Source: Candidatus Omnitrophota bacterium
GTDB lineage: Bacteria > Omnitrophota > Omnitrophia > Omnitrophales > Aquincolibacteriaceae
Length of the DNA: 64,000 nucleotides
Direction of reading: 5' to 3'
Assembly (NCBI GenBank): GCA_041674705.1
Contig: JBAYVF010000002.1
Location: 78,330-142,329, forward strand
Shown: piece by piece, positions 15,001 through 57,513 of the stretch
Layout of the letters: each line of letters begins with the position of its first letter
How positions within the stretch are numbered: position 1 is the first letter of the stretch
The notes under the pieces: generated by a model
Database searches by the model: none
Seen by the model: the letters and a program-made list of their open reading frames with translations, nothing else
Told to the model about the DNA's origin: nothing
Program-made: the position numbers and the translations under genes

Positions 15001-17542
15001 TCAGCCGGATGCTGAAGTCTTGGAACTCGCCCGGATCGTGGCGAATGATGTCCGGAAAACCCGGGAGGATTTCGTCCGTCAGGAACCGCCGATCCTTCCC
15101 AATATGCTGATGGAACCTTTTATGAAATTAATGGGCGCCTTGCGCGTGATCACCGAGGCAGAACAAATGGAGGACAAGCAGCGCTCCGAAGTGCGCTTGC
15201 CCGCCGACGCTTCAGTGGCGGGGGATGTTCAGGCGCAGTCAAAGGTACTTCCGGAACAGATCGTGTGGGTCAACGGGGTGGAGAGAAGCGGAGTTCCCAG
15301 GATCGCGGCGGTTCAGATGAAGGAAGAAAGTTTTGATGTAAATACGGAAAAGATGGCCGCTATGGTTCAGGAAATTAAAAGCCAATTTGGGGCCAACGCT
15401 CCGGCTCTTGTGATTTTTCCGGAGAGTATCGACAAGGTCCAGGGCCTCGACCGTTACACTCCTGAGAGAGAGCAGGTAAGAGAAAAAGCTTTGCGCGCCA
15501 TCGTGGAAAAAACCGGGATAGCTGTTGGCTATGGCCTTGAAAGGATCCCTCCGGCGGGGGCGGAGTACGCGACCGTTTCTTATATTGTTATCCAGCCCGA
15601 TAAAAAGGGAGAACCTGTCAAAACAGAATTTAAAAAGTTTGCGGAGGAGCATGAATCCCGCATCATCTCTTTAGGCCAGAATTTTAAAATAGCGTTTCTG
15701 ATCTGCGCGGAAAGTGAAACCGCGCTTCTTTCTTCTGTGTCCGCCCGCGGCGATCTTTCAAAGGCGGATCTCATTCTAGTTATTGCAAGCACCGACAAGT
15801 ATGAGGGAAATTTCTGGGCGTCCAAACTTTCGAAGAAGTTCGGAAATAAACCCGTCATGTTCCTGAATTTTAGCGGCGGGGACAAGTTGCAAAGGCCCGT
15901 ATCGCGCTATGTGGCCCCCGACCTTCAGGAAACCCTGTTGTCCGGCGAAGAAGGCGTCCTGATCGCCGATCTTTGGCTAAAAAAAGAAGAAACCAATCTT
16001 CCGATGGAGCCTAACTGGAATAATCCGGATCTTTTGGCAGGAGCTCGTGAAGCGTGGAACTATTTTTCGGAAGTGATCGATTGGACAATCGATGGAACCT
16101 CTCAGGAGCGAGTCTGGATGCTTAAACGAGATGGGAGTCTCGGAAAGCAGGAGATCGTTGATATGGTTTTTACGCATCTTTTTCACGTCGAGGTGTCCAT
16201 TATCGGGAGATGGCTGGAAAAGATCAAGGCGGGCGAGGATCCCTGGAAAACGGATGAAGAATTTTCCCAGATAGCCAAGAAACGCTTTGAGGGGGCAAAA
16301 AAAGGTTTTCGCGACAATCAGAAAACAACAAGGGCATTGCTTAACGCAGAGGTCGGGACGGATGCCGGGATTCTGAAACGGTGGAAGGGGACCCGGGATG
16401 AACCGGTGCCTTACCAGGCGCGCATTCCGTATCTTATGAATTTATCCTTTAATCCCGCATCTCCGCAGTGGCGGCCGAAGAACGATTATAGAAAATTCAA
16501 AACCGGTGTTGAAAAGATCCTGGAAGTCTGGCCCAAGGTCGAGCAGGCTGTTCAAGCCTATTTTGATTCTACGTCTGCTTCGCAACCTTCGACGCCGGAA
16601 GAATTTATCTCCACGCAAGGTTCTGAGCTGGCAGCAGAAACGGAAATAAAACAAATTTCTCCGCGCAGCGAAGTGCGGCTGCAGGAAGTGTATACGGGAG
16701 TTCTTAATACGGTGCTGCGGCAAAAGCCGGTACCGGACACTATGGCTCGTGAATTCACCCAAGAGGTCAAGGGAGTCGGCGTGGAGCCGGTGGTCCAGGG
16801 GCTTTGGAATGCTTTTAATAATATCGTTCTTCCTGAAGCGATGGCGGAAATGGCCGGTGGAACGGATGGTTTTGATACCCAGATGGCAGAAAGCATGAAC
16901 TTTCGAGCGGCACATCCGGAATATGAGACGCAATTGTCTGCCGCGACGCTTCAAAGTTTTGTACAAATGGAAAAAGATGCACGCAGTTATTTGGAGCAGG
17001 ATTCGAAGAATAGTCTTCACTTTGCTTTCGCCATGCGTCTGCCGTCTGAACAGTGGCTGCTGGCTTACCTCCGCGCGATTCAATCGTTGAAAAGCGCATT
17101 TGGTGACAGGGTGCGTGGCGATATCCGGATTCTAGCTCGCAGTGCCCAGCTCGATAAGGGGTTCGTGAAAACTGTTCAGCATTCTGGGTTTGCAGAGTTC
17201 GTGGAGCCGGACGGGAATGCCGCCGTTCAATTGGGTCGGTTCATGGGCGAACATCCCAACGCGCTTGCCTTTGACTTGCAGGGCATACTCAGTTCTCTTT
17301 ATGCGGAGAGGTCAGTGTTGTTGGAACGCGTGCTGTGGGAAGATGTGTATCCGATCGCGACCCCAATCGTTTTTCAAGCCGCTCAGGTAACGCAGATCAC
17401 GGCAGACCTTTTAAATAAGATCCCTCAAGTTCTTCCCGGGAATGCTGTGGCGTTCCGCAACGGCCAGCTTGTGGTCCTTGAAGCGGTCCGGCAGTTGATC
17501 CTTGAGGCGCAAGCCGGTCAGATTTTTGCACAAATGGCGTAA
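32..17542 (+). CDS. giant multidomain protein, 5836 aa from the first ATG; the frame stays open back to nt 2, so it is probably 5'-truncated by the window edge
   Basis: 17.5-kb uninterrupted ORF. Codons 2-31 upstream of the ATG contain no stop, and no SD motif precedes nt 32. Recognisable motifs: HAD ([26 protein letters not shown]), GT2 ([23 protein letters not shown]), TPR-like helices, one TM helix, J-domain (YHPDRNPG), CN hydrolase (VIFPES, K, FLICAES). All antisense ORFs in the track here are shadow ORFs. Confidence 0.92.
   Translation: [5836 protein letters not shown]
806..1385 (+). other. HAD-superfamily hydrolase-like domain within the giant ORF
   Basis: Motif I [13 protein letters not shown] (Asp codon at 821), motif II ILSDTN, motif [18 protein letters not shown]. 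Confidence 0.7.
1454..2200 (+). other. family-2 glycosyltransferase (GT-A fold) domain within the giant ORF
   Basis: IAIVTANFN...[10 protein letters not shown]...[11 protein letters not shown]...YFADNDTVL...[20 protein letters not shown]...[11 protein letters not shown] matches the classic GT2 layout. Confidence 0.8.
4458..4535 (+). repeat. two tandem 39-nt (13-aa) repeats inside the giant ORF
   Basis: tcgccgaggagcttcaggagttcgttgtgg versus tcgccgaggagtctcaggaattcgttgtcgg, encoding [13 protein letters not shown] / [13 protein letters not shown]. They lie just after a Lys/Pro/Ala-rich low-complexity tract (about 4260-4430). Confidence 0.7.
5190..5480 (+). other. TPR-like helical repeat region within the giant ORF
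   Basis: [54 protein letters not shown] resembles TPR consensus spacing. Judged by eye only. Confidence 0.4.
7266..7726 (+). repeat. internal paralogous module A (about 155 aa) of the giant ORF, ending in RRSEAR
   Basis: [86 protein letters not shown] aligns residue-for-residue with the copy at 12541-13018. Confidence 0.8.
12541..13018 (+). repeat. internal paralogous module A' (about 155 aa) of the giant ORF, ending in RRSEER
   Basis: [87 protein letters not shown] is a divergent duplicate of 7266-7726. Confidence 0.8.
13079..13150 (+). other. single predicted transmembrane helix of the giant ORF
   Basis: [25 protein letters not shown] follows directly after an RAEAR motif. It is the only long hydrophobic stretch I see in the protein. 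Confidence 0.5.
13622..13790 (+). other. DnaJ-type J-domain within the giant ORF
   Basis: [41 protein letters not shown], with the HPD tripeptide at nt 13706-13714. Confidence 0.8.
15296..15985 (+). other. carbon-nitrogen hydrolase (nitrilase superfamily) domain within the giant ORF
   Basis: [23 protein letters not shown]...ALVIFPES (Glu), KKFAEEHE (Lys), [11 protein letters not shown] (Cys) match the E-K-C triad layout. Confidence 0.65.
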
Positions 17543-17555
17543 CTATCATCACCAC

Positions 17556-17798
17556 GGCGGTCCTCGTCTGGCCTGTCTGCCTCGGCCGGTGTTCGGGCTG
17601 GGCAGGCCGCCGTTCTCACCTGGCCTGTTTGCCTCGGTCCAAACCTCAATTTTCTTTTCTTGAAGGTGGTTTGGACCGCCCCAATTTCATCTTCGTTGAA
17701 ATTGATAAGTATTGGGACGGCCGGTTTTTCGCCTGAAAAACAGGACGAATCCGTCCTTCGATTTTTTTGAATCGAAGGCGGATCGGGTTGGGCAGGCC
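17556..17798. repeat. structured spacer downstream of the giant ORF, with direct repeats and three strong hairpins
   Basis: Direct repeats: ctggcctgtYtgcctcgg at 17568-17585 and 17620-17637 (17/18), and cgggYtgggcaggcc at 17594-17608 and 17784-17798 (14/15). Hairpins: 17635-17645/17668-17678 (11 bp), 17724-17730/17735-17741 (7 bp), and 17751-17763/17770-17781 (12 bp, one bulge, U-rich loop). Confidence 0.6.
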
Positions 17799-17953
17799 CT
17801 GATCTCAGTCAAAAATTTTTAAAGGTTATCAGGACCAGTCCTGCCAACCATTAATTTTTCAATAAAGGCAGGGCAGGGCATTGCCATCGTTGCAGCCTTC
17901 CTCGAGCATATCGCCGCGGCGGAGCGGCAGCTGGCAACTGCAGCGTAATTGCT

Positions 17954-18052
17954 ATGCCGCAAGCCACATGCCACATGACTTTTCTTGTGGCCTTGTGCCT
18001 TTGTGGCGAGTGCCAGTGCCATTTTTAGTCTGAAGTCTGTGGTCTACAGTCC
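17954..18052. repeat. heptanucleotide arrays: (ATGCCRC)n facing an inverted GTGGC-type array, then (AGTCTGN)n
   Basis: atgccgc aagccac atgccac atga - tttt - cttgtggc cttgtgc ctttgtggc gagtgcc agtgcc (17954-18020), then agtctga agtctgt ggtctac agtcc (18027-18052). All have a 7-nt period. Confidence 0.55.
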
Positions 18053-21699: not shown

Positions 21700-21829
21700 A
21701 GACCACAGACCGCAGACCACAGACTAAAGACTTTAAATAAAAAACCCTCACCCATCCCTCTCCCGTGGGGAGAGGACAGGTGAGGGGCAAGCTTCTGCTC
21801 CAGTCTGTAGTCTCTGGTCTCTAGTCTAG
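21700..21829. repeat. inverted heptanucleotide arrays (AGACCNC)5 ... (NGTCTNN)4 flanking the metH/pckG terminator hairpin
   Basis: agaccac agaccgc agaccac agactaa agacttt (21700-21734), and agtctgt agtctct ggtctct agtctag (21802-21829, overlapping the pckG stop codon). Confidence 0.6.
21745..21787 (-). terminator. rho-independent terminator of pckG (two-tier GC hairpin plus U-run on the minus strand)
   Basis: Outer stem ccctcacc/ggtgaggg (21745-21752/21780-21787). Inner stem 21757-21764/21768-21775. On the minus strand the hairpin is followed by ttttttatttaaag. Confidence 0.6.
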
Positions 21830-23641: not shown

Positions 23642-23858
23642 CTTTGTATAGAGAAATTGGACATCGGATACGGTCCCAATACCGATCAATCGAAGCGAAG
23701 CTGAGATTGGGGCCGTCCAAATTACCATTTGGGGAATGAAATATAAAATTTGGACGGTTGAAGTCTACTGATGTAGAGTGATTTTGCAAGGGGTTTTTAA
23801 TTGGAAACAATCCCAATGCGTTTTATCACCGCTCAGATCGCCCCAGCGAGGCGATCTT

Positions 23859-44967: not shown

Positions 44968-46809
44968 ATGAAGAAAACCAGAAGATGGAACAAGATCACA
45001 ACGATTCATCACTTCAAGAATTTAGAAACGGTTCGCGTTTTTGGAATCGCAAGGGTTTCTACTGATAAGCAAGCTAAGTACGGAGAATCTCTTGAGCATC
45101 AACGTGAAGTGATCTCGAATTGGGTCAAGTCCAAGGCAAGCATCAATGTGCCGCAGGAATGGAAGGTCGTTGATCTTTTCATTGAAAATGATGATAAGGA
45201 TGGTGTCAAAAGAGGCAGAACAGCGACTAAACGGGAAGGGAGACACGGCCTTTCGAAAGCGCTTGAGCTTGCGAAGGCGCGTTTAGTCGATGTGGTCGTG
45301 GTAACGAAACTAGACCGGATTGCCCGAAACGTAAAGGATTACATCGATATTTCCGCCGAGTTTAACGAAAACGACGTGGCGTTGGTCTGTCTCGACCTCG
45401 ACATTGATACCTCAACGCCTGATGGCCAGATGATCATGCGAAATCATGCGAATCTGGCCCAATGGCAGGCGGAGCGCATTGCTCAATATAGCGTGGAGAC
45501 CGTGAAACGCCATGCAAAGCAGGGCAGACCCCTTGGCTCTCCGCCGATGGGATATCGTGTTATCCATCAAGCTGATGGAAAACACACATTGAAACCTGAT
45601 CCGGTTTATCAAAAACACATCGAAGTCATTGATAAGCTTTATCTGACTTCTCAAAGTCTGGACCGGGTTGTTCGAGAGCTTCATAATAAAGGATATAAAA
45701 GCCCCAAAGGGAAAACATACTCGAAGCCGCAAGTCTCACGGATTCTTCAGAACATCCGCTACACGGGCCGACAGGAATATGATGGTGCTGTTTATGACGG
45801 TAACTGGCCGTCTCTTCGGTCTTCTGCTACTCAAGCCATGATCGAAAAGATCTTTAACCGGAATCGGAAACATCGTCGCAGCATCACTCGCCCCATGCGC
45901 TATGCTTATCTTCTCCAAGGATTGCTGAAATGTCCTCACTGCCATTCGAGCATGACTCCTAAATCCGGAACGGGAAGGCATGGAAAAAACTATCCGTATT
46001 ACTTGTGCGTGAAAGCGGATAAAACGGAGGGTATCGATTGCGAGGAAATTTATCTCCCGGCAGAAGCGATTGATAATGCTGTGATCGATTATTTAAAAGA
46101 GCTTCGTCTGAAACCCGGTGTCATTGAAAAAGTTATTGGAAAAGCGAATGATTCGACTTCGTCACGGATAGGACATATTCAGAAAGACCTTGAGCGGGTG
46201 CGCGAGAAGCTGAAAGACGTCCGCACTAAAATCTCGAACTTGGTGGACATCCTTGCGGATAAAGGTGTTTCCCAGCTCAAAGCGATCAAAGAAAAACTCG
46301 AGATGCTGGACCAGGAAGAAAAAGAGCTTACGCTTGAGGAAAAACGTTTGGATCAAGAAACAAGGGCCGAAAAAGCCCAAGCGTCAGCCGCTCACCAGCA
46401 GATCCAAAGTCTCAACCTTTTCAGCGACTTATTCCGCTTGAACAAAGATCGGCCGGAAAAAATTAAAATGATCCTCCCGCGTTTTGTGAACTTTGTAGTT
46501 TGCCATATGACGGACAAGCAAAAAGGGATCGGGCGGCTTGATGTGGGGCTTTTTGGCAAACCGTTTATTGGTGACGGCAATGCGGAAATATGGAATGAGG
46601 CTTTACAGGAATTGGCGGTTCAGTACCAAAAAGAGTCTTCTAAGGACTCTATTGCCCCCGGATCAGCAAACCCTCTTTTGACCAGAGGGTTGCTGGTTCG
46701 TCCGGGAGGAACAACTGGGGTCCCTTGTGCTATTCCTGGTGAACCAAAAAAAATAACAAAATTTTTGGTTCGCCCGGGAGTAATAAATGGGGCGGTCGAC
46801 GGGATTTGA
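44968..46809 (+). CDS. large serine recombinase
   Basis: Resolvase catalytic domain (FGIARVSTDKQ...VVVTKLDRIARN), recombinase domain, zinc ribbon (CPHCHSSMTPKSG...YPYYLC) and a coiled coil. Confidence 0.88.
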   Translation: MKKTRRWNKITTIHHFKNLETVRVFGIARVSTDKQAKYGESLEHQREVISNWVKSKASINVPQEWKVVDLFIENDDKDGVKRGRTATKREGRHGLSKALELAKARLVDVVVVTKLDRIARNVKDYIDISAEFNENDVALVCLDLDIDTSTPDGQMIMRNHANLAQWQAERIAQYSVETVKRHAKQGRPLGSPPMGYRVIHQADGKHTLKPDPVYQKHIEVIDKLYLTSQSLDRVVRELHNKGYKSPKGKTYSKPQVSRILQNIRYTGRQEYDGAVYDGNWPSLRSSATQAMIEKIFNRNRKHRRSITRPMRYAYLLQGLLKCPHCHSSMTPKSGTGRHGKNYPYYLCVKADKTEGIDCEEIYLPAEAIDNAVIDYLKELRLKPGVIEKVIGKANDSTSSRIGHIQKDLERVREKLKDVRTKISNLVDILADKGVSQLKAIKEKLEMLDQEEKELTLEEKRLDQETRAEKAQASAAHQQIQSLNLFSDLFRLNKDRPEKIKMILPRFVNFVVCHMTDKQKGIGRLDVGLFGKPFIGDGNAEIWNEALQELAVQYQKESSKDSIAPGSANPLLTRGLLVRPGGTTGVPCAIPGEPKKITKFLVRPGVINGAVDGI

Positions 46810-46865
46810 ACCCGCGACCCCAAGATCCACAATCTTGTGCTCTAACCAACTGAGCTACGACCGCC
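46788..46865 (-). tRNA. tRNA-His: tRNA-His (anticodon GUG) with encoded G-1 and CCA
   Basis: Minus strand: G-GCGGTCG-TA-GCTC-AGTTGGTTA-GAGC-A-CAAGA-TTGTGGA-TCTTG-GGGTC-GCGGG-TTCAAAT-CCCGT-CGACCGC-C-CCA. This folds as a cloverleaf, with the G-1:C73 pair diagnostic of His. Confidence 0.9.
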
Positions 46866-47208: not shown

Positions 47209-47460
47209 ATGGAACGGTTAATGACGGCGAAGCAAGTGAGTGAGTTGATCGAGGTGAAACCTTCCACGGTCTATCAATGGGTCCATCTGGGGCTCATCCC
47301 TTACGTGAAGCTTGGCAAATGTGTGCGTTTTAAGAAAGCCGAGCTTTTTCGCTGGATCGACAAGAACTTCCGCAAAGAACGCATTTCCTTCCGGTCAGCT
47401 GAAAAGGTCCTCGGTAAATATCCTTCTTCCAAACAGAAAGAATTCTTCGAGTTGGAATGA
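47209..47460 (+). CDS. excisionase/AlpA-type HTH DNA-binding protein
   Basis: LMTAKQVSELIEVKPSTVYQWVHLGLIPYVKLGKCVRFKKAELFRWI. Confidence 0.6.
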   Translation: MERLMTAKQVSELIEVKPSTVYQWVHLGLIPYVKLGKCVRFKKAELFRWIDKNFRKERISFRSAEKVLGKYPSSKQKEFFELE

Positions 47461-47477: not shown

Positions 47478-47533
47478 AGTACGGGGTACGGCGAAGAAAA
47501 ACACATGACGCCGTACGCCTTACACCGTACGGG
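47478..47533. repeat. heptad-array hairpin, copy 1 (full)
   Basis: agtacgg ggtacggcg, a 15-nt spacer, then cgccgtac gccttac accgtac ggg. It starts 18 nt after the xis-like stop. Confidence 0.75.
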
Positions 47534-47642
47534 CGTTCTTGCTTTCCCTCTTTAGTAGGCCTACAATAAAGTCGTAGATAGAAGTGCCGGAAGTTGGGCG
47601 ATTCGTGGATTTTACACCCTAGCGGCAACTAGGAGGTGTGCT

Positions 47643-47831
47643 ATGACAGATCCTCAGAGGCATAAATTGGTCGCCAGTGGCGCGTTGGCAATGACCGTGT
47701 GTCTGATCCTTTATTTGATCGTGTTCGGACTCCACTCTTTTGATCCGAAGAGTTTGATCCTTTTTGTCGGATTTTTTGCGGTGGCCGCGAAGCTTTCTAC
47801 GGTTAAGCATAAACACAATCCGATGATCTAA
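47643..47831 (+). CDS. small hypothetical membrane protein
   Basis: 62 aa with two hydrophobic helices, bracketed by CCGTAC-type repeats. Confidence 0.25.
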   Translation: MTDPQRHKLVASGALAMTVCLILYLIVFGLHSFDPKSLILFVGFFAVAAKLSTVKHKHNPMI

Positions 47832-47854
47832 CGCCGTACGCCTTCCGTCGTACG
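47832..47854. repeat. heptad-array element, copy 2 (solo right arm)
   Basis: cgccgtac gccttcc gtcgtac g, immediately after the stop of ORF 47643-47831. Confidence 0.6.
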
Positions 47855-47920
47855 AAAGTGTTTTAGCGGCGCTCTTTTGCGATTGTAAATCCAGCCTTCC
47901 TTCAGTACACTACTCAGCTT

Positions 47921-49028
47921 ATGAAAGAAGAAATTACTGCACTCAAGGACCGCCTTACGGATCTCAAGGAAAAGCTCCAAGAGATAAGGGGGTATCTTTG
48001 ACCTGGAGGCCCAGGAGCGCGAGATCTCTGATATTAATATAAAAATGACCGCGGCGGATTTCTGGGACCACCCGCAAAGTGCCCAGGCCACGGTCGAGCG
48101 CCTAAAAATCCTCAAAAAAGTCGTGGAACCCTGGCACAAGGCCCATCAAGCTTCCGGCGATCTTCTGGAACTGATCGGGATGATGGATGAAAATCAGGGA
48201 GAATCGCTTAAAGAATTTCAGGACGACGTCGCAAAACTTTCCCGGGAAGTCGAGCTCCTTGAATTTCAGCGCCTTTTATCTGGACCCTTTGATCCCAATA
48301 ATGCGATCGTGAGCATCAACTCCGGCGCGGGCGGGACCGAGGCTTGCGATTGGGCGCAAATGCTTTATCGGATGTACACGCGCTGGGCAGAGCAACATGA
48401 TTACGCGGTTCAAATGGTCGATCTGATGCAAGGGGAAGAAGCCGGCATTAAGAGCGCGACTTTTATCGTGCAAGGCGCCTACGCATACGGTTATTTGAAA
48501 GCGGAGTCGGGTGTGCACCGGCTTGTGCGTATTTCGCCCTTTGATGCCAACAAACGCCGACATACTTCGTTCGCGTCCATGGATGTGATTGCGGAGGTGG
48601 ATGATATCCCCGAGATCGATATCCGGGACGAGGATATCCGGGTCGATGCTTTCCGGGCGGGCGGTGCGGGAGGGCAGCATGTGAACAAGACCTCAAGCGC
48701 GATCCGTATCACGCATCTTGCGACCGGGATCGTCACGCAGTGCCAGAATGAACGTTCGCAGACTCAGAACAAGCAGGTGGCGATGAAGGTTTTGAAGTCC
48801 CGCCTGTATGAAAGATTGATTCAGGAAAAAGAAGCGGCGATGGCCACGCAGTACGGGCCCAAAAAAAAGATCGAGTGGGGTTCTCAGATCCGCTCGTATG
48901 TGTTCCATCCTTACACGATGGTGAAAGATCACCGTACGGACTGCGAGACTTCAAATGGAGACGCGGTGATGGACGGGAAGCTCGACGAATTCATCGAAGC
49001 TTATTTGAAACAGAATGTGTCTAAATAG
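47921..49028 (+). CDS. prfB: peptide chain release factor 2, requiring a programmed +1 frameshift at 47996-48001
   Basis: Frame 0 reads ATG 47921 ... AGG GGG TAT CTT TGA (stop 47999-48001). Frame +1 from 48000 continues DLEAQERE... into the track ORF 48045-49028. SPF (RISPFD) and GGQ (GAGGQHVNKT) are present, with the classic SD-like AGGGGG plus CUU UGA C site. Confidence 0.93.
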
Positions 49029-49029
49029 T

Positions 49030-49094
49030 GCGGCGTACGGGGTACGGAGTACGGCGATTTTTTTTCGCGGTGCGCCGTACGCCTACTCCTTACC
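49030..49094. repeat. heptad-array hairpin, copy 3 (full)
   Basis: gcggc gtacggg gtacgga gtacggcg, a 16-nt spacer containing T8, then cgccgtac gcctact ccttacc. It starts 2 nt after the prfB stop. Confidence 0.75.
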
Positions 49095-49106
49095 TAGGGG
49101 GTTGAA

Positions 49107-49904
49107 ATGAAGAAGCTGAGTCAGCTAGGACTGATCTTGATGGTATGTTTTGCGTTCTCGGGTTGTGTCGTCCAGGTCGAGGATGGACAGGTCGGTGTGA
49201 AAAATGATTTCGGGCATATCGGTGATGAGGTTTTGAACGCCGGTTGGCACTTCTTTGTGCCGGCGGTGACGCAGATCGAGCTCTGGAATGTGAAGTTGCA
49301 AGAGCTGAAGGAGACCGCCGAGGTGCCTTCCTCGGAAGGGTTGATCTCTCAGCTGGATATTTCGATCATGTATCAAGTGCCGGCTGACAAAGCGAGCTTT
49401 GTCCGTAAAAAGATCGGTCCCTATTATGTTTCGGTCGTCTTGGAGCCCTATGTCCGCGAAGCGATACGAAACGTGGCGAGTGGTTATGCCGTGAAAGCAC
49501 TTTATAGCGAAGCGGGGCGTAAGGAGATCGGGAAGAATATCCTCGATTTCCTGAAAGGGAAGCTGGATGAGAAGGGGATCATTATTCAAGACGTGCTTTT
49601 GCGCGACGTGAAACTTCCGCCGTCGTTTTCTCAAAGCATCGAATTGAAATTAAAAGCCGAGCAGGAAGCGCTCCAGAAGGAATTTGAATTGCAGAAAGCC
49701 AAGAAGGATGCTGAGATCGAGGTGGCGAAAGCGGGAGGTGTTGCGCAAGCCAACCAGATCATCGGAGATTCGCTCAAAAGCAATGACTCTTATTTGAAGT
49801 ATTTATGGATTCGGAGTCTTAAAGATACGAAGAATCAGGTGATCTATGTGCCGACCGAAACAGGGCTCCCGATCCTTGAGGCTTCGAGGAATCAGACAAA
49901 ATAA
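49107..49904 (+). CDS. SPFH/band-7 (prohibitin-like) lipoprotein
   Basis: Signal peptide with lipobox AFSGC, followed by a band-7 core and a coiled coil (KLKAEQEALQKEFELQKAKKDAEIE). Confidence 0.75.
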   Translation: MKKLSQLGLILMVCFAFSGCVVQVEDGQVGVKNDFGHIGDEVLNAGWHFFVPAVTQIELWNVKLQELKETAEVPSSEGLISQLDISIMYQVPADKASFVRKKIGPYYVSVVLEPYVREAIRNVASGYAVKALYSEAGRKEIGKNILDFLKGKLDEKGIIIQDVLLRDVKLPPSFSQSIELKLKAEQEALQKEFELQKAKKDAEIEVAKAGGVAQANQIIGDSLKSNDSYLKYLWIRSLKDTKNQVIYVPTETGLPILEASRNQTK

Positions 49905-49909
49905 AAAAA

Positions 49910-49975
49910 GTACGGCGGAAGGCGTACGGCGTATCGCGCAAAACACGCCGTACTCCGTACGCCGTACACCTTACG
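49910..49975. repeat. heptad-array hairpin, copy 4 (full)
   Basis: gtacggc ggaaggc gtacggcg, a 15-nt spacer, then cgccgtac tccgtac gccgtac accttac g. It lies between the band-7 gene and secA. Confidence 0.75.
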
Positions 49976-49982
49976 AGGAAAA

Positions 49983-52664
49983 ATGCTCAACTTTATTCTC
50001 AAAAAGATCTTTGGAACGCAGAACACCCGCACCCTAAAACTTCTTTGGCCGGTCGTGGCCGAAGTGAATGCTCTTGAGCCCCAGATCCAGAAGCTTACGG
50101 ATGCAGAGCTTCGCGCAAAGACCGATGAGTTCAAAAAGCGGCTCGCGGAAGGCGCCACGCTCGATGATATTCTCCCCGAAGCTTTTGCCGTGGTGCGTGA
50201 AGCCTCGATACGGACAACCAAGATGCGGCACTTTGATGTGCAGATTCTGGGCGGTCTCGTGCTTCACAAGGGGAAGATCGCCGAAATGTCCACCGGCGAA
50301 GGGAAAACGCTTGTGGCGACACTTCCAGTCTATTTGAATGCTCTGGAAGGCAAGGGTGTGCATCTTGTGACCGTGAACGATTATCTGGCTCGCCGCGACC
50401 GGAACTGGATGGGACCCATTTATGAATTCCTGGGGCTTACGGTGGGTGTGATCCAGCATGACATCCCGCAGGAAGAGCGCCAGAGGGCCTACGCTTCGGA
50501 CATCACGTTCGGGACGAATAATGAATTCGGATTTGATTATCTCCGCGACAATATGGTCACCCAGATCGAGATGCGCGTTCAGCGGCCGCTTCACTACGCG
50601 ATCGTCGACGAAGTGGACTCGATCCTGATCGATGAGGCCCGCACGCCGCTCATCATCTCCGGCCCCGCAGAAGATTCGACGGATAAATATTACAAGGCTC
50701 AGCGCGCGGCACTTGCGCTCAAGGCTCATAAGATCGTGAAAGAAGAGGTCGATCCTGATTGGAAGGCCAAGCTCGAAGAGATCAAGAAGACAGTGGATTA
50801 CATCGCCGACGAGAAGGCCAAGACGATCCGCATGACCGAGCAAGGCGAAGCCAAAGCTGCAAAGCTTATGGGCGTGGGGAACATGCACGACTCGGACACC
50901 GTCGCAGAGCGGCACCACATTATGACCGCGTTGCGAGCGAAGGAGTTTTTTGAGCGGGATGTGGATTATGTGGTCAAGGATGACGAGATCCTGATCGTCG
51001 ATGAATTTACCGGACGTCTTATGCCGGGCCGCCGTTTTTCGGACGGGCTGCACCAGGCGCTCGAGGCCAAGGAAGGCGTGGAGATCCGCCGCGAGAACCA
51101 AACGCTTGCCACCGTCACGTTTCAGAATTATTTCCGTATGTACAAAAAACTGGGCGGTATGACCGGAACCGCCGCGACCGAGGCGCTCGAGTTCGATAAG
51201 ATCTACAAACTGGATGTCGTGGTGATCCCCCCGAACCGTCAATGCGTGCGAATCGATTCAGCGGATTGCATTTACCGGACCGAGAAGGAAAAATTCGACG
51301 CAGTAGTGCGCGAAGTTGCGGAAGAACATAAAAAAGGAAGACCGGTCCTGGTCGGAACGATCTCGATCGAAAAATCCGAACGCCTGAGCCGCATGCTTCA
51401 GAAGATCAATCTTCCGCATGTGGTCCTCAACGCCAAGTATCACGAGAAAGAAGCCGAGATCGTGGCGCAGGCCGGACAGCCGGCTGTCGTGACGATCGCG
51501 ACGAATATGGCGGGCCGCGGAACGGATATTGTGCTCGGGCCCGGTGTCGCGGACAAAGGCGGGCTGACGGTGATCGGTACCCAGCGCCATGAAGCCCGGC
51601 GCATTGACAACCAGCTTCGCGGTCGCTGCGGACGCCAAGGCGATCCGGGTTCCTCCAAGTTTTTTATCTCCATGGAAGATGAACTCATGCGGCTTTTTGG
51701 ATCGGACAGGATCTCTTCCATGATGCAGCGCCTCGGGATGCAGGAAGGGGATGAGATCCAGCATCCGCTCGTGAGCCGGGCCATGGAAACGGCGCAGAAG
51801 CGCGTCGAAGCGCACAACTTTGAGATCCGAAAACACCTGCTTGAATACGATGACGTGATGAACCGTCAGCGCGAACTGATCTATGGCGAACGTGATCTGG
51901 TGCTGAAAGGAACTCCTGAGGAACTGAAAAAACATGTTCTTCTGATGGTTGAAAATGTAGTCGAAAGTTTGGTGCTGACCTACATCAATCCGGATATTCG
52001 CGAAGAAAACAAGGATCCCGAAGGATTGATCACGGCTCTCGGTGAGAAGTTTGGCGCGGGTTTCCGCGAAGTCGTAGAAAAGAATATGGATGATATGGAC
52101 GGATTGCTCGAAGCGCTTGAGGAAAAAGTGGGCGAGCAGCTGAATCGCCGGGAACAGGAATTCGGCCCGGAACGGATGCAATACCTCGTGCGGTACATTC
52201 TGCTTCAGGTGATCGACACGAAATGGAAGGAGCATCTCTACGGACTCGATAATCTTCGCGAGGGGATCGGACTCCGCGCTTACGGCCAGCGGGACCCGCT
52301 CGTGGAGTACAAGCGCGAAGCTTTTGACATGTTCGATCAAATGACCGACAGCATTAAAGAAGAAGCCGTCGAACTTCTTTTCCGTGTCCAGCAGGTCCAT
52401 GAGACCAAGCTTGCGAATCCGATTGAAGAATCCAAGGCCCAGTACCTTCACCCCGAAGCAAGTTTTTCGGAAAGTAAGGGGCCGTCTCCGTCGAAATTGC
52501 CGCGAGGCATGAATACTCCGTCCCCGTTCTCTCCGCGCAGTGAAGCGCCGGATGACCTGGCCCCGGAACCGATCAAGCGCTCCCACGAGAAAGTCGGCCG
52601 GAATGACGCGTGTCCCTGCGGCAGCGGTAAAAAATATAAAAAGTGCTGTGGAATTAATGAATAG
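49983..52664 (+). CDS. secA: preprotein translocase ATPase SecA
   Basis: [14 protein letters not shown] Walker A, a DEAD-like [11 protein letters not shown] motif, and a C-terminal zinc finger [14 protein letters not shown]. Confidence 0.97.
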
Positions 52665-54225
52665 TAAGGCGCACGGTGTACGGCGTACGGAGACAACGAA
52701 CACGCCGTACTCCGTACTCCGCACACCTTATCTCTATCAGATAGTTTCCGGAGCCCTGCTCGCGCTCTGCTTTCCCTCCGCCGGTTGGGGATTCCTGGCC
52801 TGGATCGCGCTTATACCGCTTCTCGCTTCCCTCGATCATGCTCAGGATCAGTCGCAGGCCCTGGGGTTTGGCCTGATCACCGGGATCGTATTTTTTGTTT
52901 TTTCCATTCACTGGCTGACGCACGTGTCGACCGTGGGTTGGCTTCTCGTGGTCCTGATGGAATCGGTTTACATCATGGTGTTCGCGTGGCTCGCGTATCT
53001 AGGGATGAGGTCCCAGAAACCCGTTTTTTTTAAGATTGTGTGGATCGCGCTTGCATGGACGGTCGCCGAGATCCTTCGTTCCGAAATGCCGGTCTTTGGC
53101 TTCGGGTGGAATATCCTGGCCTATTCTCAGTCTTCCTATGTCCCTTTCATCCAGTTCGCCAAGATTTTTGGCGCCTACGGGTTAGGGTTTTTGATCGCGT
53201 TGGTGAACGCGTTCCTTCTTTATGCCTGGTTCAGACGTAAGGATCTCCGGACGTCTTTGAGTTTGTTCTCGGGTGGGGTTTTGATCCTGGCCGGGCTTTG
53301 GGGGTACGGAAGCGCGGTGCTTGCCAAGCCGGCGACTCCCTCGGAATATTTACGCGTCTCGGTCGTGCAAGGGAATATCCCGCAATCCGTAAAATGGGAG
53401 ATCATGGCCAAGGAAAAGATCTTGGAAATCTATGAAAAATTGACCCAGCTTGCGGCGCTCGAACAACCGGATCTGATCCTCTGGCCCGAGGCGTCCTTCC
53501 CGGGTTATTTTAATCGTGATCTCCAAGCCGGAAGGATCTCGCGTCTTGCGCAAGAGATCCAAACGCCGCTTTTGGTCGGAGGGCTCCATTGGGCGAGCGA
53601 TCGAGAACTTTACAACAGCGCTTATTTCCTTAAAAAAGACGGCGCTTCCGGACAGCGTTACGACAAGCTCCGGCTTGTGCCGTTCGGAGAGTACATTCCG
53701 CTAAAAATGATCTTTGGATGGCTGACTCCTGTCGCGGACGCGTTCGGGATCAGCGATTTCAGCGCGGGGACGGCTCCCGTGGTTTTTCGCTGGGCGCGCG
53801 AAGCCTGGCCTTTTGGGGTCTTGATCTGTTTTGAGGATGTTTTTCCAAGCCTCGCCCGGGACCTGGCAGATGGCGATGCGAAATTCCTTGTAGTGATCAC
53901 CAATGATGCCTGGTTCGGAAAGACCTCGGCCCCGTACCAGCATCTCCAGGCCTCGATCTTTCGCGCCGTCGAGAACGGTGTCGCGGTCGTGCGGGCGGCC
54001 AATACCGGAGTTTCAGGTTTTATCTCCCCTCAGGGCCGCGTGCGGGCGATCCTGAAAGACGAACGAGGCGAAGAAACTTTTTCGATGGGGCAGAAGACGC
54101 TCGACCTGCCGCTTGTCACGGAACGAACCTTTTTCCGCCAAGGTGGTTTTCTTTTTCCGCTTTTTGCCGCGGCCCTTTTTCTTGTTTTCTGCTTATTCCT
54201 TTTCAAAAGAAAGAAAAGCTCATGA
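52657..54225 (+). CDS. lnt: apolipoprotein N-acyltransferase
   Basis: Polytopic N-domain plus a CN-hydrolase domain ([31 protein letters not shown]). The only in-frame start near the first TM is ATG 52657, giving an 8-nt overlap with secA. The track start at 52540 lies inside secA. Confidence 0.85.
52666..52729. repeat. heptad-array hairpin, copy 5 (full, 20/25 complementary arms)
   Basis: aaggcgcacggtgtacggcgtacgg, a spacer, then ccgtactccgtactccgcacacctt. It starts 2 nt after the secA stop and lies inside the lnt 5' coding region. Confidence 0.75.
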
Positions 54226-54455
54226 ATTTCCAAAGTGTGGTAAGACGTACGGCGTACGGAGTACGGCGTATTTTCTTGCGCAGCACGCTGGTCGCCGTAC
54301 TCCTTACGGTCCTTTTAGGCGGTTGCGTTCGCGTCGCCGGCACTGCCGGATATGCCAAAATCAATGCCGACGGAGAAACGACGGTGAAGCGGGCCGGTTT
54401 CGATACGGCGGACCTCGTCTCGAAAAATAAAACCCCGGGAAGTATTACGATTTAA
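54222..54455 (+). CDS. small putative lipoprotein (77 aa)
   Basis: ATGA overlap with the lnt stop. The Arg-rich n-region, hydrophobic core and lipobox LLGGC are encoded largely by a heptad-repeat element. Confidence 0.4.
   Translation: MNFQSVVRRTAYGVRRIFLRSTLVAVLLTVLLGGCVRVAGTAGYAKINADGETTVKRAGFDTADLVSKNKTPGSITI
54244..54309. repeat. heptad-array hairpin, copy 6 (full)
   Basis: gacgtacggc gtacgga gtacggcg, a 24-nt spacer, then cgccgtac tccttac gg. It lies after the lnt stop, inside the small lipoprotein ORF. Confidence 0.75.
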
Positions 54456-54486
54456 AAGGAATGGCAAGATCAAGAAGGAGAGCGGG

Positions 54487-55713
54487 ATGAAAAAAAATAC
54501 GGCGGTAGCGTTCGTGGCTCTTATGCTCGGGCTCGGTCTTTTTTGTCAGGCCGGAGTGTTTGCGGCCGAGGACGCGACGCTCGAGCGGCTGAATCAATTT
54601 TCCGAACGGATGCACAAAGCCCGGCTGGAAGCCGTGGGGTATCCAGTCAACCAGAATACCGACCTCAAAGAATTCTACGACTGGTACCTGGGCGCCAAAC
54701 TCTATGAAGTTTCCATGAACAATGTCGGCGATCCGCGGAAACCCGAGATTATCAGCATGAACACCGACGAGTTTGAGAATGAAGTGGTCGATTTCTTCGC
54801 TCCGCTCTATGGCTTTTCCGCAGACGATACTTGGGGGATCGTGACCATGAGCGGCACGGACGGAAACAATCACGGGATGTATTTCGGGACCCGTCAGCTT
54901 GTGAGCCAGACCGGGATGCGGCCCATCTGTTATGTCTCGGAGGAAGCGCATTATTCCATCAAGCGGCTCGCGGATCTTCAGAACCTGGAGCTTCGGCTGA
55001 TCAAAGCCGACGAAACCGGGAAGATGATCCCAAGCGAATTCGAAAAGGCGCTCGATCCGACCAGGCCTGCTTTGGTGGTGATCGCGGTGGGGACCACGTT
55101 CAAGGGTGCGATCGACGATCAGGCGGCGATCGATCAAGTGCTTCGCAAAAAGAAACCTGTCGCGGTCTACCGGCACGTGGACGCCGCGCTCTTCGGTGGC
55201 TATTTACCGTTCACGGATCATAAAGATCTGGTGAACCGCAACGTGGTTCCGTTCGATTCCATCGCGGTCAGCGGCCACAAATTCTTCGGATTTGACGAAC
55301 CGATGGGGATCTTTATCACCACGCAAAAGACCCGAAATCAGACGAACCCTTCCCATGTGTCTTATCTCAATCAGGCCGTGCCGACGATCACGTGTTCCCG
55401 GAACGCGCTTTCGGCTCTTAAATTCTGGTGGAAAGTAAAACGAACGGGTGAAGAAGGGTTCAAGGTGCAGGCCAAAGCGATCCTGGCCAATGCCCGGTAT
55501 CTGGAAGAGCAGTTGAAAAAAATCGGCTGGCCGGTCTGGCGCGGCGAAACTTCCAACACGGTGTATTTCAAGAGGCCGGCGGAAGATATCATGAAAAAAT
55601 ACAACCTTGCGCCGGACTTTGACGAGCGTCTGGGTGGGGCCCTGGCGCATGCCGTGGTCATGCAGAATGTCACCCCTGACATCATTGACCAGATCGTTCG
55701 GGATATTCGATAA
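54487..55713 (+). CDS. PLP-dependent group II decarboxylase (HdcA / histidine-decarboxylase-like) with an N-terminal signal peptide
   Basis: GYPVNQ, SMNNVGDP, MSGTDGNNHG, HVDAALFGG and SGHKFFG (PLP Lys). N-terminus MKKNTAVAFVALMLGLGLFCQAGVFAAE. Confidence 0.75.
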   Translation: MKKNTAVAFVALMLGLGLFCQAGVFAAEDATLERLNQFSERMHKARLEAVGYPVNQNTDLKEFYDWYLGAKLYEVSMNNVGDPRKPEIISMNTDEFENEVVDFFAPLYGFSADDTWGIVTMSGTDGNNHGMYFGTRQLVSQTGMRPICYVSEEAHYSIKRLADLQNLELRLIKADETGKMIPSEFEKALDPTRPALVVIAVGTTFKGAIDDQAAIDQVLRKKKPVAVYRHVDAALFGGYLPFTDHKDLVNRNVVPFDSIAVSGHKFFGFDEPMGIFITTQKTRNQTNPSHVSYLNQAVPTITCSRNALSALKFWWKVKRTGEEGFKVQAKAILANARYLEEQLKKIGWPVWRGETSNTVYFKRPAEDIMKKYNLAPDFDERLGGALAHAVVMQNVTPDIIDQIVRDIR

Positions 55714-55744
55714 GGCGAACAGGTATAGATAGGGAGATAGCGGT

Positions 55745-55969
55745 ATGAAAAAGATCCTTGTGGTTTTAGTGGCGGGAATGATGGCCGGCGTTTTCTTTTA
55801 TGAAGTGCCCTCGGCGCACGCGATTTTCGGGATCCGTGCTGCGAGAACGGCGCTTGCGGCCCGGAAAGCAAAACAGACGCTTGCCGAAGACCCAAACGAC
55901 GAGGCAACGGAAAGAGCCAACGAAAATCTTCGGCGTCTTGAGCGCGAGTCCCAAACGCGGAATTCGTGA
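55745..55969 (+). CDS. small secreted hypothetical protein
   Basis: Signal-like N-terminus MKKILVVLVAGMMAGVFFYEVPSAHA. Confidence 0.3.
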   Translation: MKKILVVLVAGMMAGVFFYEVPSAHAIFGIRAARTALAARKAKQTLAEDPNDEATERANENLRRLERESQTRNS

Positions 55970-56098
55970 TCCGCGATTTTCCTTTTGACGAGCCGTTGCT
56001 TTGTTGAGGGGAAAACGGCCGATAGGGTCAGAACAAGGCTTTGGAAAGTTTTACCAGCGTTTTTTTAAAACCGCATTTTTCACATGGAAGGAGAAAAA

Positions 56099-56548
56099 AT
56101 GAAGCTTCCGGGTTTTTATATCAGATGTCTTGCGGTCTTCGCGTTAGTCCTTTTCATCTCCGGTTGTGCGAGCGTCGATTATGTCGGCGACACCTACGCG
56201 CCTACGGATCATGCGGATATGTATTTCGATGCAAAAGATATTCCGCGTCCCTATAAAGTGATGGGGCAAATGACGCTCGACGAGCAGGAGTATGCAAGTT
56301 CCCAGGCGATGCAGGCGGACATGAAGAAGGAAGCCATGGCCCGCGGGGCCGATGCGGTGCTGTTTACCGGGATGCAAAAGATCCAGACCGGAGTTGTGAC
56401 CCACTGGCAGGAGCCGGTCAAGAACAAGGGGAAGAACAAATATGATTTTGGAACGTCGACTTCCCAGATCCAGCATGAGAAGGAAATGACCGGTTCTTTG
56501 CTGAAGTATACGGATATCGCGCCCTCCCAGGGCACGGGCCCTTCCTAA
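56099..56548 (+). CDS. hypothetical lipoprotein
   Basis: MKLPGFYIRCLAVFALVLFISGCAS lipobox, with a GGAG-containing RBS upstream. Confidence 0.5.
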   Translation: MKLPGFYIRCLAVFALVLFISGCASVDYVGDTYAPTDHADMYFDAKDIPRPYKVMGQMTLDEQEYASSQAMQADMKKEAMARGADAVLFTGMQKIQTGVVTHWQEPVKNKGKNKYDFGTSTSQIQHEKEMTGSLLKYTDIAPSQGTGPS

Positions 56549-56565
56549 GAAAGAGACAGACTGAA

Positions 56566-57324
56566 TTAAATCAGGGAAAGGCCGCCGTCGGCGATGACGG
56601 TTTGGCCGACGATCCAGGAGGATTCGGGGGAGCAGAGGAATGCGACGACGCGGGCGAGGTCTTCCGGTTTTCCAATTCTTCCGCCCGGAGTTCTTTTTAA
56701 CACTTCCTGCTTAAACTCTTCAAAAAACGGGAACATCTTAAGGGCGTCTGTGTCCACCAATCCGCCCGAGACACAATTCACGCGTATGCCTTTTGGCATT
56801 AATTCGACGGCCAAGTAGCGCATCGTGGCTTCGATCGCGGCCTTCGAGATGCCGATGGCGCCATAATTGGGGATAAAGTGGTGCGCGCCAAGGCTTGAGA
56901 GCGCGATGATAATGCCTTGTTTTTTGGCTTCCATGATCGGAAGGGCCTTTTGCGAAAGCGCGAGAAACGCTTTGGCATTGATATTCATCGAAAGGTCCCA
57001 GTGATTCATCTTGAGCCGATGGACGGCCTTAAAAGCGCCCAGTGCGGCATTGTGGACAAGAATATCAAGTGTCCCAAAGGTCTTCAGGACGTCGTCAAAG
57101 AGAGCTTTGTGCGCGTCGAGGTCGCCGACATTTGCCTGAAACGCAGCGGCTTTGACACCCTTAGCCAGGAGTTCGTCGACGGTTTTCTTGGCGGCATCTT
57201 CATTCTGAAGGTAGTTGACCGCGATGTTCACGCCGTCATCGGCCAAGCGGAGGGCGATGGCCTTTCCAATACCGCGGGAAGCTCCGGTGATAAGAGCGAC
57301 TTTGCCCTTCATAGAATTTGTCAT
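56566..57324 (-). CDS. SDR-family enoyl-ACP reductase, FabL-like (could alternatively act as a ketoreductase)
   Basis: KVALITGASRGIGKAIA, NINAKAFLALSQ, ISSLGAHHFIPNYGAIGISKAAIEATMRYLAVEL and VNCVSGGLVDTDALK closely follow the B. subtilis FabL pattern as I remember it. Confidence 0.65.
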   Translation of the reverse strand: MTNSMKGKVALITGASRGIGKAIALRLADDGVNIAVNYLQNEDAAKKTVDELLAKGVKAAAFQANVGDLDAHKALFDDVLKTFGTLDILVHNAALGAFKAVHRLKMNHWDLSMNINAKAFLALSQKALPIMEAKKQGIIIALSSLGAHHFIPNYGAIGISKAAIEATMRYLAVELMPKGIRVNCVSGGLVDTDALKMFPFFEEFKQEVLKRTPGGRIGKPEDLARVVAFLCSPESSWIVGQTVIADGGLSLI

Positions 57325-57482
57325 AGTCCCAATACCTTTCAATTTTAACGAAGTTGAAATTGGGGCAATCCTGGCAGCCATTGATGATATAAAAACAAAT
57401 GCCAGGTTGGGCGATAAGATAGCCACATTCTTTTATAAAATCAATCTATTTTGAAGCATATGGCACGAGGCATACGCCGCAC

Positions 57483-57513
57483 ACCGTACCCCTTACTCCG
57501 TACGAAGTTAAAA
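57483..57513. repeat. heptad-array element, copy 7 (solo right arm)
   Basis: acgccgcac accgtac cccttac tccgtac g, in the divergent fabL-like / methyltransferase spacer. Confidence 0.6.

Follow-up and report, generated by a model that had tools for sequence, protein, structure and literature searches.

The window analysed here is a 64,000-nucleotide (nt) stretch of a 180-kb contig from a metagenome-assembled genome (MAG) of Candidatus Omnitrophota, uncultured nanobacteria with compact genomes. It contains seven copies of a short palindromic repeat, here called the GTACGG element, in which inverted arms built of tandem 7-nt units (heptads) enclose a short loop. These inverted heptad elements are probably insertion elements of a known sort, similar to REPs (repetitive extragenic palindromes), in a new, heptad-built form. 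The elements turn over at orthologous sites, spread genome-wide, insert in frame into genes and are copied as whole units. Copies land or survive where the harm is small, namely in the gap between a stop codon and the next ribosome-binding site (RBS), at convergent gene ends and, in frame, in tolerant parts of proteins. The explanation we favour, with confidence about evenly divided, is that the GTACGG elements are miniature palindromic insertion elements akin to REPs, REPINs (REP doublets forming hairpins) and Rickettsia palindromic elements (RPEs), with tandem-heptad arms, and that they are moved or built by way of the 7-nt word.

Anatomy and statistics of the GTACGG elements

A single copy is 45-75 bp long and consists of inverted arms of two to four tandem heptads with a short loop between them. 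Reading of the sequence confirmed the coordinates and anatomy of the five full copies and two solo right arms in the original prediction, and Pfam confirms the names it gave to prfB, the band-7 gene, secA, lnt and an "xis-like" open reading frame (ORF), which belongs to HTH_17. No strand is assigned to any element. The first full copy (47478..47533; 2-3 heptads per arm around a 17-nt A-rich loop; folding energy -24.3 kcal/mol) lies in the gap between the HTH_17 ORF (stop at 47460) and an ORF of 62 amino acids (aa), and a solo right arm, GCCGTAC GCCTTCC GTCGTAC (47832..47854), stands immediately 3' of the 62-aa ORF. The copy at 49030..49094 (4 + 3 heptads, 18-nt T-run loop; -35.8 kcal/mol, z -3.4) fills the gap between the prfB stop and the band-7 RBS, and that at 49910..49975 (-36.1 kcal/mol, z -4.9) fills the gap between the band-7 stop and the secA RBS. 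The left arm of the latter reads GTACGGC-GGAAGGC-GTACGGC, a sub-structure also found in other MAGs, and its variant heptad GGAAGGC/GCCTTCC recurs in copies from CAISGE, CAYMER and JBAXGK. A fourth full copy (52666..52729; 4 + 4 heptads) begins 2 nt past the secA stop and is in frame with the lnt ORF; the fifth (54244..54309) lies past the lnt stop, within ORF 54222-54455. The second solo right arm, CCGCACA CCGTACC CCTTACT CCGTAC (57477..57513), occupies the divergent spacer between an SDR gene on the minus strand and a methyltransferase gene on the plus strand. Spacers of the full copies measure 12-26 nt, a wider range than the 14-24 nt first given. An assembly artefact was rejected, since independent ENA and Logan assemblies are identical.

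All five full copies fold to hairpins with energies of -24 to -36 kcal/mol (z -2.2 to -4.9), made up of 6-bp helices with single mismatches at the variable seventh position. The cores CCGTAC/GTACGG were counted 40 times in the window, compared with 10.3 +/- 3.5 in shuffled sequence, and none of 100 shuffles reached 40. Thirty of the 40 matches fall within 47,479-57,503, and 25 of those 30 lie inside the seven elements. Period-7 tandem arrays number eight in the window versus about 1.25 in Markov resamples, with about one each for periods 4-10, and Tandem Repeats Finder also reports period-7 arrays. In 218 kb of sequence, a layout in which two tandem and two inverted cores fit into 45 nt turned up 18 times at period 7, while periods 6, 8, 9 and 10 yield 0, 1, 1 and 0. 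Chance falls far short of explaining the period of 7 or the inverted layout. The arms are head-to-tail 7-nt units, as in heptanucleotide simple sequence repeats (SSRs), and the two arms of a copy provide the terminal inverted repeats of a MITE (miniature inverted-repeat transposable element).

Conservation of the heptad word

Mismatches in the paired core (second heptad, k=1) amounted to 1.05, compared with 1.10 for the summed deviation of the arms from GTACGG/CCGTAC. Core mismatches thus equal the summed deviations of both arms, a sign that compensation is absent. In the outer heptads, complementarity at the N position was found in 12 of 73 pairs where 34% would be expected, and sense and antisense strands folded equally well (-31.6 and -31.8 kcal/mol, n=40, Wilcoxon p=0.97). 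Neither the compensatory substitutions nor the sense-specific fold of a structured RNA was therefore found in these comparisons, and the conserved unit is the 7-nt word, not base pairing. A possible role as mRNA stabiliser or attenuator receives no positive support, as sense-strand bias and compensatory substitution are both missing. The word has a fixed polarity, running towards the loop on both strands: GTACGG points that way in 57 cases and is reversed in four, for a set partly ascertained with an oriented pattern. Only one of the four reversed cases is clear, and at least two are overlap artefacts of the palindromic core.

At the Rfam gathering threshold the sole match was tRNA-His, leaving the elements without a family. 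The idea that they act as classical terminators, raised in the original prediction, is contradicted by several observations. None of the five full hairpins is followed by the U-tract that, after a G+C-rich hairpin, marks an intrinsic terminator, and a scan for terminator and promoter consensus sequences flagged only mini-hairpins within the arms. In the prfB/band-7 and band-7/secA gaps the right arm borders on the next gene's RBS, with the essential secA gene downstream. A canonical bidirectional terminator, consisting of a long G+C stem followed by TTTTTCTTTTT, is located between convergent genes just past the window end (14041-14107 of L182; with the 7 kb beyond the window, the part of the source contig that was read comes to 71 kb), demonstrating that the organism uses ordinary terminators. 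Arrays of restriction or Chi-like sites were dropped as an explanation because there are several words per genome, and CsrA GGA sites because only some words would fit.

Turnover at orthologous gene gaps

The window locus (W) was compared with syntenic prfB-band-7-secA loci on related contigs from metagenomes, whose band-7 identity is 81-95%. Loci of related contigs are given L numbers, L097 being that of the sister MAG JBDRCT01 (contig JBDRCT010000047), a sister species with 81-84% nucleotide identity to W at the prfB-secA locus. Family membership is set by architecture, and the words differ at the same stop-to-RBS gaps among relatives. In the prfB/band-7/secA gaps, GTACGGN is found in W, L010 and L012, AAGCCAC in L008, GTAACGG in L009 and L019, GGATGAN in L003 and L014, CCACGNN in L017, GGGACTC in L018 and CAACGCG in L004. 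Ordinary, non-heptad hairpins are present in the gaps of L004 and L022, and the gaps of L011 and L016 are empty, with spacers of 11-31 nt. L010 combines GTACGG upstream with GTAACGG downstream in a mosaic, and in both L010 and L018 a newer word family adjoins GTACGG remnants within one gap.

Individual sites can be followed between lineages. At the 49030..49094 site GTACGG is kept in L010 and L012, other words stand in L008, L009, L014, L003 and L017, and no element occurs in L011 and L016. The 47478..47533 site has orthologous GTACGG elements in L097, L010, L009 and L018; its loop is reverse-complemented in L010 (p about 0.01), which suggests arm-arm exchange at the DNA level. In L097 the secA-lnt element has an orthologue whose loop is conserved, and an intact left arm, loop and right arm stand where the window has the solo arm 47832-47854. 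Judged by the sister sequence, this arm, present as first described, is a decayed remnant of a full element. Presence and absence together with family replacement at orthologous sites, in addition to the in-frame insertions and whole-element copies described below, make a miniature mobile repeat the best supported of the readings that had been offered.

No copy-number change was observed in short arrays, either between contigs of 99.9-100% identity or between the W and L097 orthologues. The longer-than-chance, slippage-variable arrays typical of heptanucleotide SSRs are thus not seen here, the arrays having 2-4 units and no indels. By contrast, direct (GGCGTTC)n arrays at L067 14603-14704 and L068 7271-7351 are three units apart on contigs that are 99.6% identical; these contigs are not Omnitrophota (band-7 homologue 33% identical), and the difference is ordinary heptamer-SSR slippage. 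In L097 (5692-5776) there is no band-7 gene between prfB and secA, and an element with the word GGATGG fills the prfB-secA gap. From this arrangement, the absence of band-7 in the sister species may reflect gene loss or gain between flanking repeats.

Copies within coding sequence

A catalogue of 109 Omnitrophota elements was used for position tests. Fifty-two have the stop of an ORF of 100 aa or more no further than 40 nt away, where 11 would be expected, and 30 are flanked on either side by at least 240 nt of open frame. A protein of more than 1,600 aa in L161 holds three in-frame GTACGG elements. Element 1 is a clean insertion of 43 aa that is missing from all nine homologues aligned, and elements 2 and 3 are common only to the closest homologue (54% identity). 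In-frame copies in genes that are absent from the orthologues, as known for RPEs, are therefore present.

Two of the window copies placed at gene boundaries by the original prediction do follow stop codons as described, but are probably inside coding sequence. The element at 52666-52729 is in the lnt frame from the ATG at 52657, with no alternative canonical start before the conserved N-terminus, and probably adds 28 translated codons to the N-terminus of Lnt. A conserved small lipoprotein (ORF 54222-54455) owes RRTAYGVRR...VAVLLTV, part of its signal peptide, to the element at 54244-54309. The lipoprotein gene (plus strand) overlaps the lnt stop (ATGA), has the lipobox ..GGC|VRVAG.. and encodes 60-100 aa in relatives, among which its signal peptide is highly variable.

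Large ORFs differ in their content of such elements. The giant ORF that covers the first 17.5 kb of the window (32-17542, plus strand, 5,836 codons) has zero heptad elements, and similarly large ORFs in the related loci L170, L127, L172, L113 and L161 hold in-frame ones. In TraB/GumN-like giant proteins from several MAGs, GTACGG arrays occur directly before a conserved VVTGGFH (L113 4366-4577; L170 913-941). The 158 nt between the arms in L113 suggest "long-loop" variants or nested insertions.

Distribution in Omnitrophota and other phyla

One genome per species was scanned with the GTACGG hairpin pattern GTACGGNGTACGG-N(9-39)-CCGTACNCC, yielding at least 108 matching stretches, and pattern-match loci of other MAGs were read as 8-kb blocks. 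The pattern is present at at least 15 loci on at least 11 contigs of CAISGE01 and on at least four contigs of the sister species JBDRCT01, and among the matches listed JBAXGK01, CAYMER01 and CAZPCF01 each have multiple contigs with GTACGG hairpins. The purely local family of the original prediction is thus not supported. Its statement that there are none in the first 47 kb of the window is true, and the same applies to the 7 kb past the window end, but this absence does not mark a local family, as the family is genome-wide in relatives. Local duplication of larger segments can be discounted for the window copies, which share arms but not flanks or loops.

More distant Omnitrophota contigs are rich in inverted heptad elements with yet other words. 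Outside Omnitrophota, the matches listed with the same word and architecture include Gemmatimonadota, Vicinamibacteraceae (Acidobacteriota), Planctomycetota, Cyanobacteria, Phaeodactylibacter, Thermoleophilaceae and others. Only two matches were found among 2.9 million viral contigs, which indicates that the elements are not phage-borne. Three CAYMER01 copies at unrelated loci agree in their arms, in a third heptad that is degenerate, and in the loop GTAARAGCTTTTTC, indicating whole-element copying. We also compared words between elements: the same word was found in 7 of 62 neighbouring pairs, 12 of 98 non-neighbouring pairs from the same locus and 3% of random cross-locus pairs, in a test that is noisy as the array caller overlooks degenerate arms. 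The rates for adjacent and non-adjacent pairs are alike and exceed the cross-locus rate, suggesting that words are a property of the lineage and not strictly of neighbours.

Comparison with known repeat families

The closest precedent is the set of inverted GGGAATC array pairs in Xanthomonas campestris and X. axonopodis, with 70-75 pairs per genome that are mostly intergenic (Rehm et al. 2015, PMC4692102). Their gene context is kept between species, with length and sequence varying, and a G-quadruplex has been discussed for them, the function being unexplained (PMC4692102). As in those pairs, the Omnitrophota elements place two short convergent arrays of one heptamer close together between genes. 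However, Xanthomonas has one G-rich word per genus, in contrast to many words per lineage here that cannot form such quadruplexes: the G-tract word GGGNATC has no counterpart in GTACGGN, AGACCAC or ATGCCAC, which are without G3 tracts. Word replacement, in-frame copies in genes and whole-element copying further set the Omnitrophota elements apart.

REPs, REPINs and BIMEs (bacterial interspersed mosaic elements) are mobilised by RAYTs (REP-associated tyrosine transposases) and are high-copy, short, imperfect palindromes found mostly downstream of genes and occasionally within them (PMC3116915, PMC3733652). The analogy drawn originally with REP/BIME palindromes is apt, as is that with the heptamer short tandemly repeated repetitive (STRR) sequences of cyanobacteria. 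The elements described here are likewise short imperfect palindromes in high copy, mainly extragenic and 3' of ORFs, located between unidirectional or convergent ORFs, with several families per genome, inverted dimers folding to larger hairpins, and presence/absence polymorphism. They differ in lacking the GTAG/CGTC tag (copies start with GTACGG/GTAAGG and end with CCGTAC/CCTTAC), in having tandem 7-mer arms instead of a single 20-40 nt palindrome, in loops that are not conserved, and in the absence of any RAYT gene from the 85 kb examined.

Ogata and colleagues reportedly described RPEs in 2000 as selfish palindromes located in frame within protein-coding genes as well as between genes. RPEs are 100-150 bp long, with a consensus conserved over the whole length and no known heptad periodicity. 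The likeness lies in palindromes that occur both between genes and in frame in ORFs, adding peptide without destroying the protein; the Omnitrophota elements differ in their 7-nt periodicity. Heptanucleotides are the commonest long SSR (LSSR) unit in prokaryotes according to Mrazek 2007, cited in PMC4679880. LSSRs, cyanobacterial STRRs and TAACTGA repeats (Mrazek 2007; Mazel 1990; MacGregor 2015, PMC4679880) are similar in their 7-nt unit, intergenic position and sporadic, lineage-specific distribution. Those repeats are direct arrays, often long, variable in copy number and usually with one or few words, whereas the Omnitrophota arrays are short (2-4 units), copy-stable and always face an inverted partner at a distance of 12-30 nt. 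No publication was found that describes repeats of this kind in Omnitrophota.

Origin of the elements and possible agents

Under the favoured explanation as insertion elements, the seven GTACGG elements would be copies of one family, some of them decayed, with loops that are short, fast-changing and at times flipped. The family would be lineage- or genome-wide in an Omnitrophota clade, alongside sister families with other words. A trans-acting activity that reads the word would make or move the elements, with a transposase, a recombinase or a heptad-binding protein as candidates, and any RNA-hairpin effects, such as 3'-end protection or attenuation between cistrons, would be a by-product or a later co-option.

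Several observations weigh against this explanation. The seven GTACGG copies on the source contig are restricted to 10 kb of the 71 kb, which simple genome-wide transposition does not predict; copies cluster locally in several of the 8-kb loci of other MAGs as well. Most paralogous loops are unalignable, and rich in A- or T-runs, despite arms at 90-95% of the consensus, so that either selection on or homogenisation of the arms is needed, or a process that does not copy loops. Pfam identified no transposase or RAYT-like gene in the window, its flanks or the 21-kb locus, and no Y1_Tnp domain (RAYT, Y1 HUH transposase) among the scanned window ORFs or the L001 and L182 gene calls. Target-site duplications were not seen on comparing filled with empty sites or among the three CAYMER paralogues, a test weakened by the divergence of the empty sites. 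Finally, most lineages have some hairpin at the prfB-band-7 site, non-heptad ones included, as would also be expected from selection for structure.

Such selection forms the basis of an alternative in which intercistronic and 3'-end hairpins act as partial terminators, attenuators or exonuclease blocks, their sequence being free to drift and the heptads arising from slippage-prone mutation. It would account for the excess of elements next to stops (52/109 against 11), the very stable hairpins, the occurrence of some hairpin in the prfB-band-7 and band-7-secA gaps of most relatives (of the non-heptad kind in L004 and L022) and the retention of the secA-lnt element between W and L097 despite their divergence. 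We nevertheless consider it unlikely, as no T-run follows any full copy on a contig that has a canonical hairpin with T-run elsewhere, the next RBS abuts the hairpin with the essential secA downstream, and the folds of both strands are equal (p=0.97). Compensation is absent, complementarity at N positions is below chance, the close relatives L011 and L016 do without hairpins, and copies occur in frame inside ORFs. A purely mutational origin, with neither trans factor nor mobility, would have the hairpin grow in place by 7-nt slippage, favoured in bacterial replication, and subsequent quasi-palindrome template switching that turns an array into its inverted partner. This is decidedly unlikely given that dozens of unrelated sites in several genomes share the same word, and even GTACGGC-GGAAGGC-GTACGGC, that polarity is fixed, that a complete module entered a gene in one step (L161), and that short arrays are constant between near-identical contigs (99.9-100%) and W/L097 orthologues. 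In its favour, most prokaryotic genomes have heptanucleotides as their most abundant class of long SSRs (Mrazek 2007, via PMC4679880 and PMC4692102), the architecture occurs in many phyla, paralogous loops are not conserved, the flip-flop of loops suggests DNA-level exchange between arms, and the long arrays of other taxa vary in copy number.

Alternatively, the arrays could be bound by small DNA-binding proteins with sequence specificity, each word having its own protein, and be kept for nucleoid organisation or regulation. Among ribbon-helix-helix proteins, those of the omega-repressor type recognise 7-bp heptads in tandem or inverted order, and the conservation of the word rather than of pairing, with mismatches at N positions tolerated or favoured, the strict 7-bp period and the lineage-specific sets of words are all consistent with such a role. 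Several unrelated words in one genome, copies within coding sequence, decaying solo arms, the loss of sites without replacement in close relatives and the lack of any candidate protein found make it very improbable.

A broader proposal, which we regard as a long shot, is that inverted heptad hairpins form a phylum-spanning, unnamed class of mini-elements made by a "word-writing" or "word-reading" activity. One possible agent is an enzyme that adds the same templated 7-nt repeat to both 3' ends of a break before rejoining; templated 3'-end extension would explain the fixed polarity towards the loop, the independent arms, a loop that is unconserved filler and the absence of target duplications. 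A new transposase family with affinity for tandem heptads is another candidate. If the proposal is true, each lineage would have its own words, gene ends would be remodelled, and peptide segments would be added to signal peptides and giant proteins.

Repeats that fill stop-to-RBS gaps, swap words and are tolerated in frame constitute an unrecognised source of genome and protein variation in Omnitrophota; in the window, copies appear to contribute part of the signal peptide of a lipoprotein and to extend Lnt at its N-terminus. Their breadth across phyla ties the unexplained heptanucleotide excess of bacteria to a concrete, testable object. They also matter for annotation, as gene callers run ORFs through the elements and assemblies break at them.

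Other features of the window and related contigs

The same architecture is found in the window with other words. An (ATGCCAC)n-loop-(GTGGCnn)n element (17954-18007) lies 5' of metH, next to a GTCTGnn right-arm array (18026-18050), and arrays with the words AGACCAC / GTCTnnn (21700..21827) are located between the convergent metH and PEPCK genes, where they enclose a second, inner perfect hairpin; this word pair is also present in L171. As with the GTACGG copies, no strand is assigned to these features.

Within 44968-46864 lies the gene of a large serine recombinase of 613 aa (Resolvase/Recombinase/Zn_ribbon_recom), and the 3' end of this gene overlaps tRNA-His (46788-46864, minus strand). This overlap may mark the edge of an integrated element of about 42.8-46.9 kb, and L003 and L004 show the HTH_17-62aa-prfB synteny without the recombinase. 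The recombinase was considered as an agent for the heptad elements and set aside, there being no evident link between them.

The prfB gene contains a classical programmed +1 frameshift site (47921-48045), with a short ORF0 running from the ATG at 47921 to ...AGGGGGTATCTTTGAC and the main frame to 49028; the site is kept in all relatives read. A conserved non-coding block, AAAGTCGTAGATAGAAGTGCCGGAAGTTGGGCG, at about 47560-47610 lies 5' of the conserved 62-aa ORF and is present in all relatives, among them L006, L008-L012, L018 and L097. Rfam gave no match for the block, a possible leader or promoter element. A second, unrelated palindromic repeat consists of TTGGGAC.GCCC / GGGC.GTCCCAA pairs around A/T-rich spacers in long intergenic regions. 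It was observed at 17670-17800 and 23707-23721 of the window, as well as in L182 (15300-15400), L006 (8700-8960), L011 (1990-2064) and L097 (6900-7030), and in relatives it is often located upstream of prfB.

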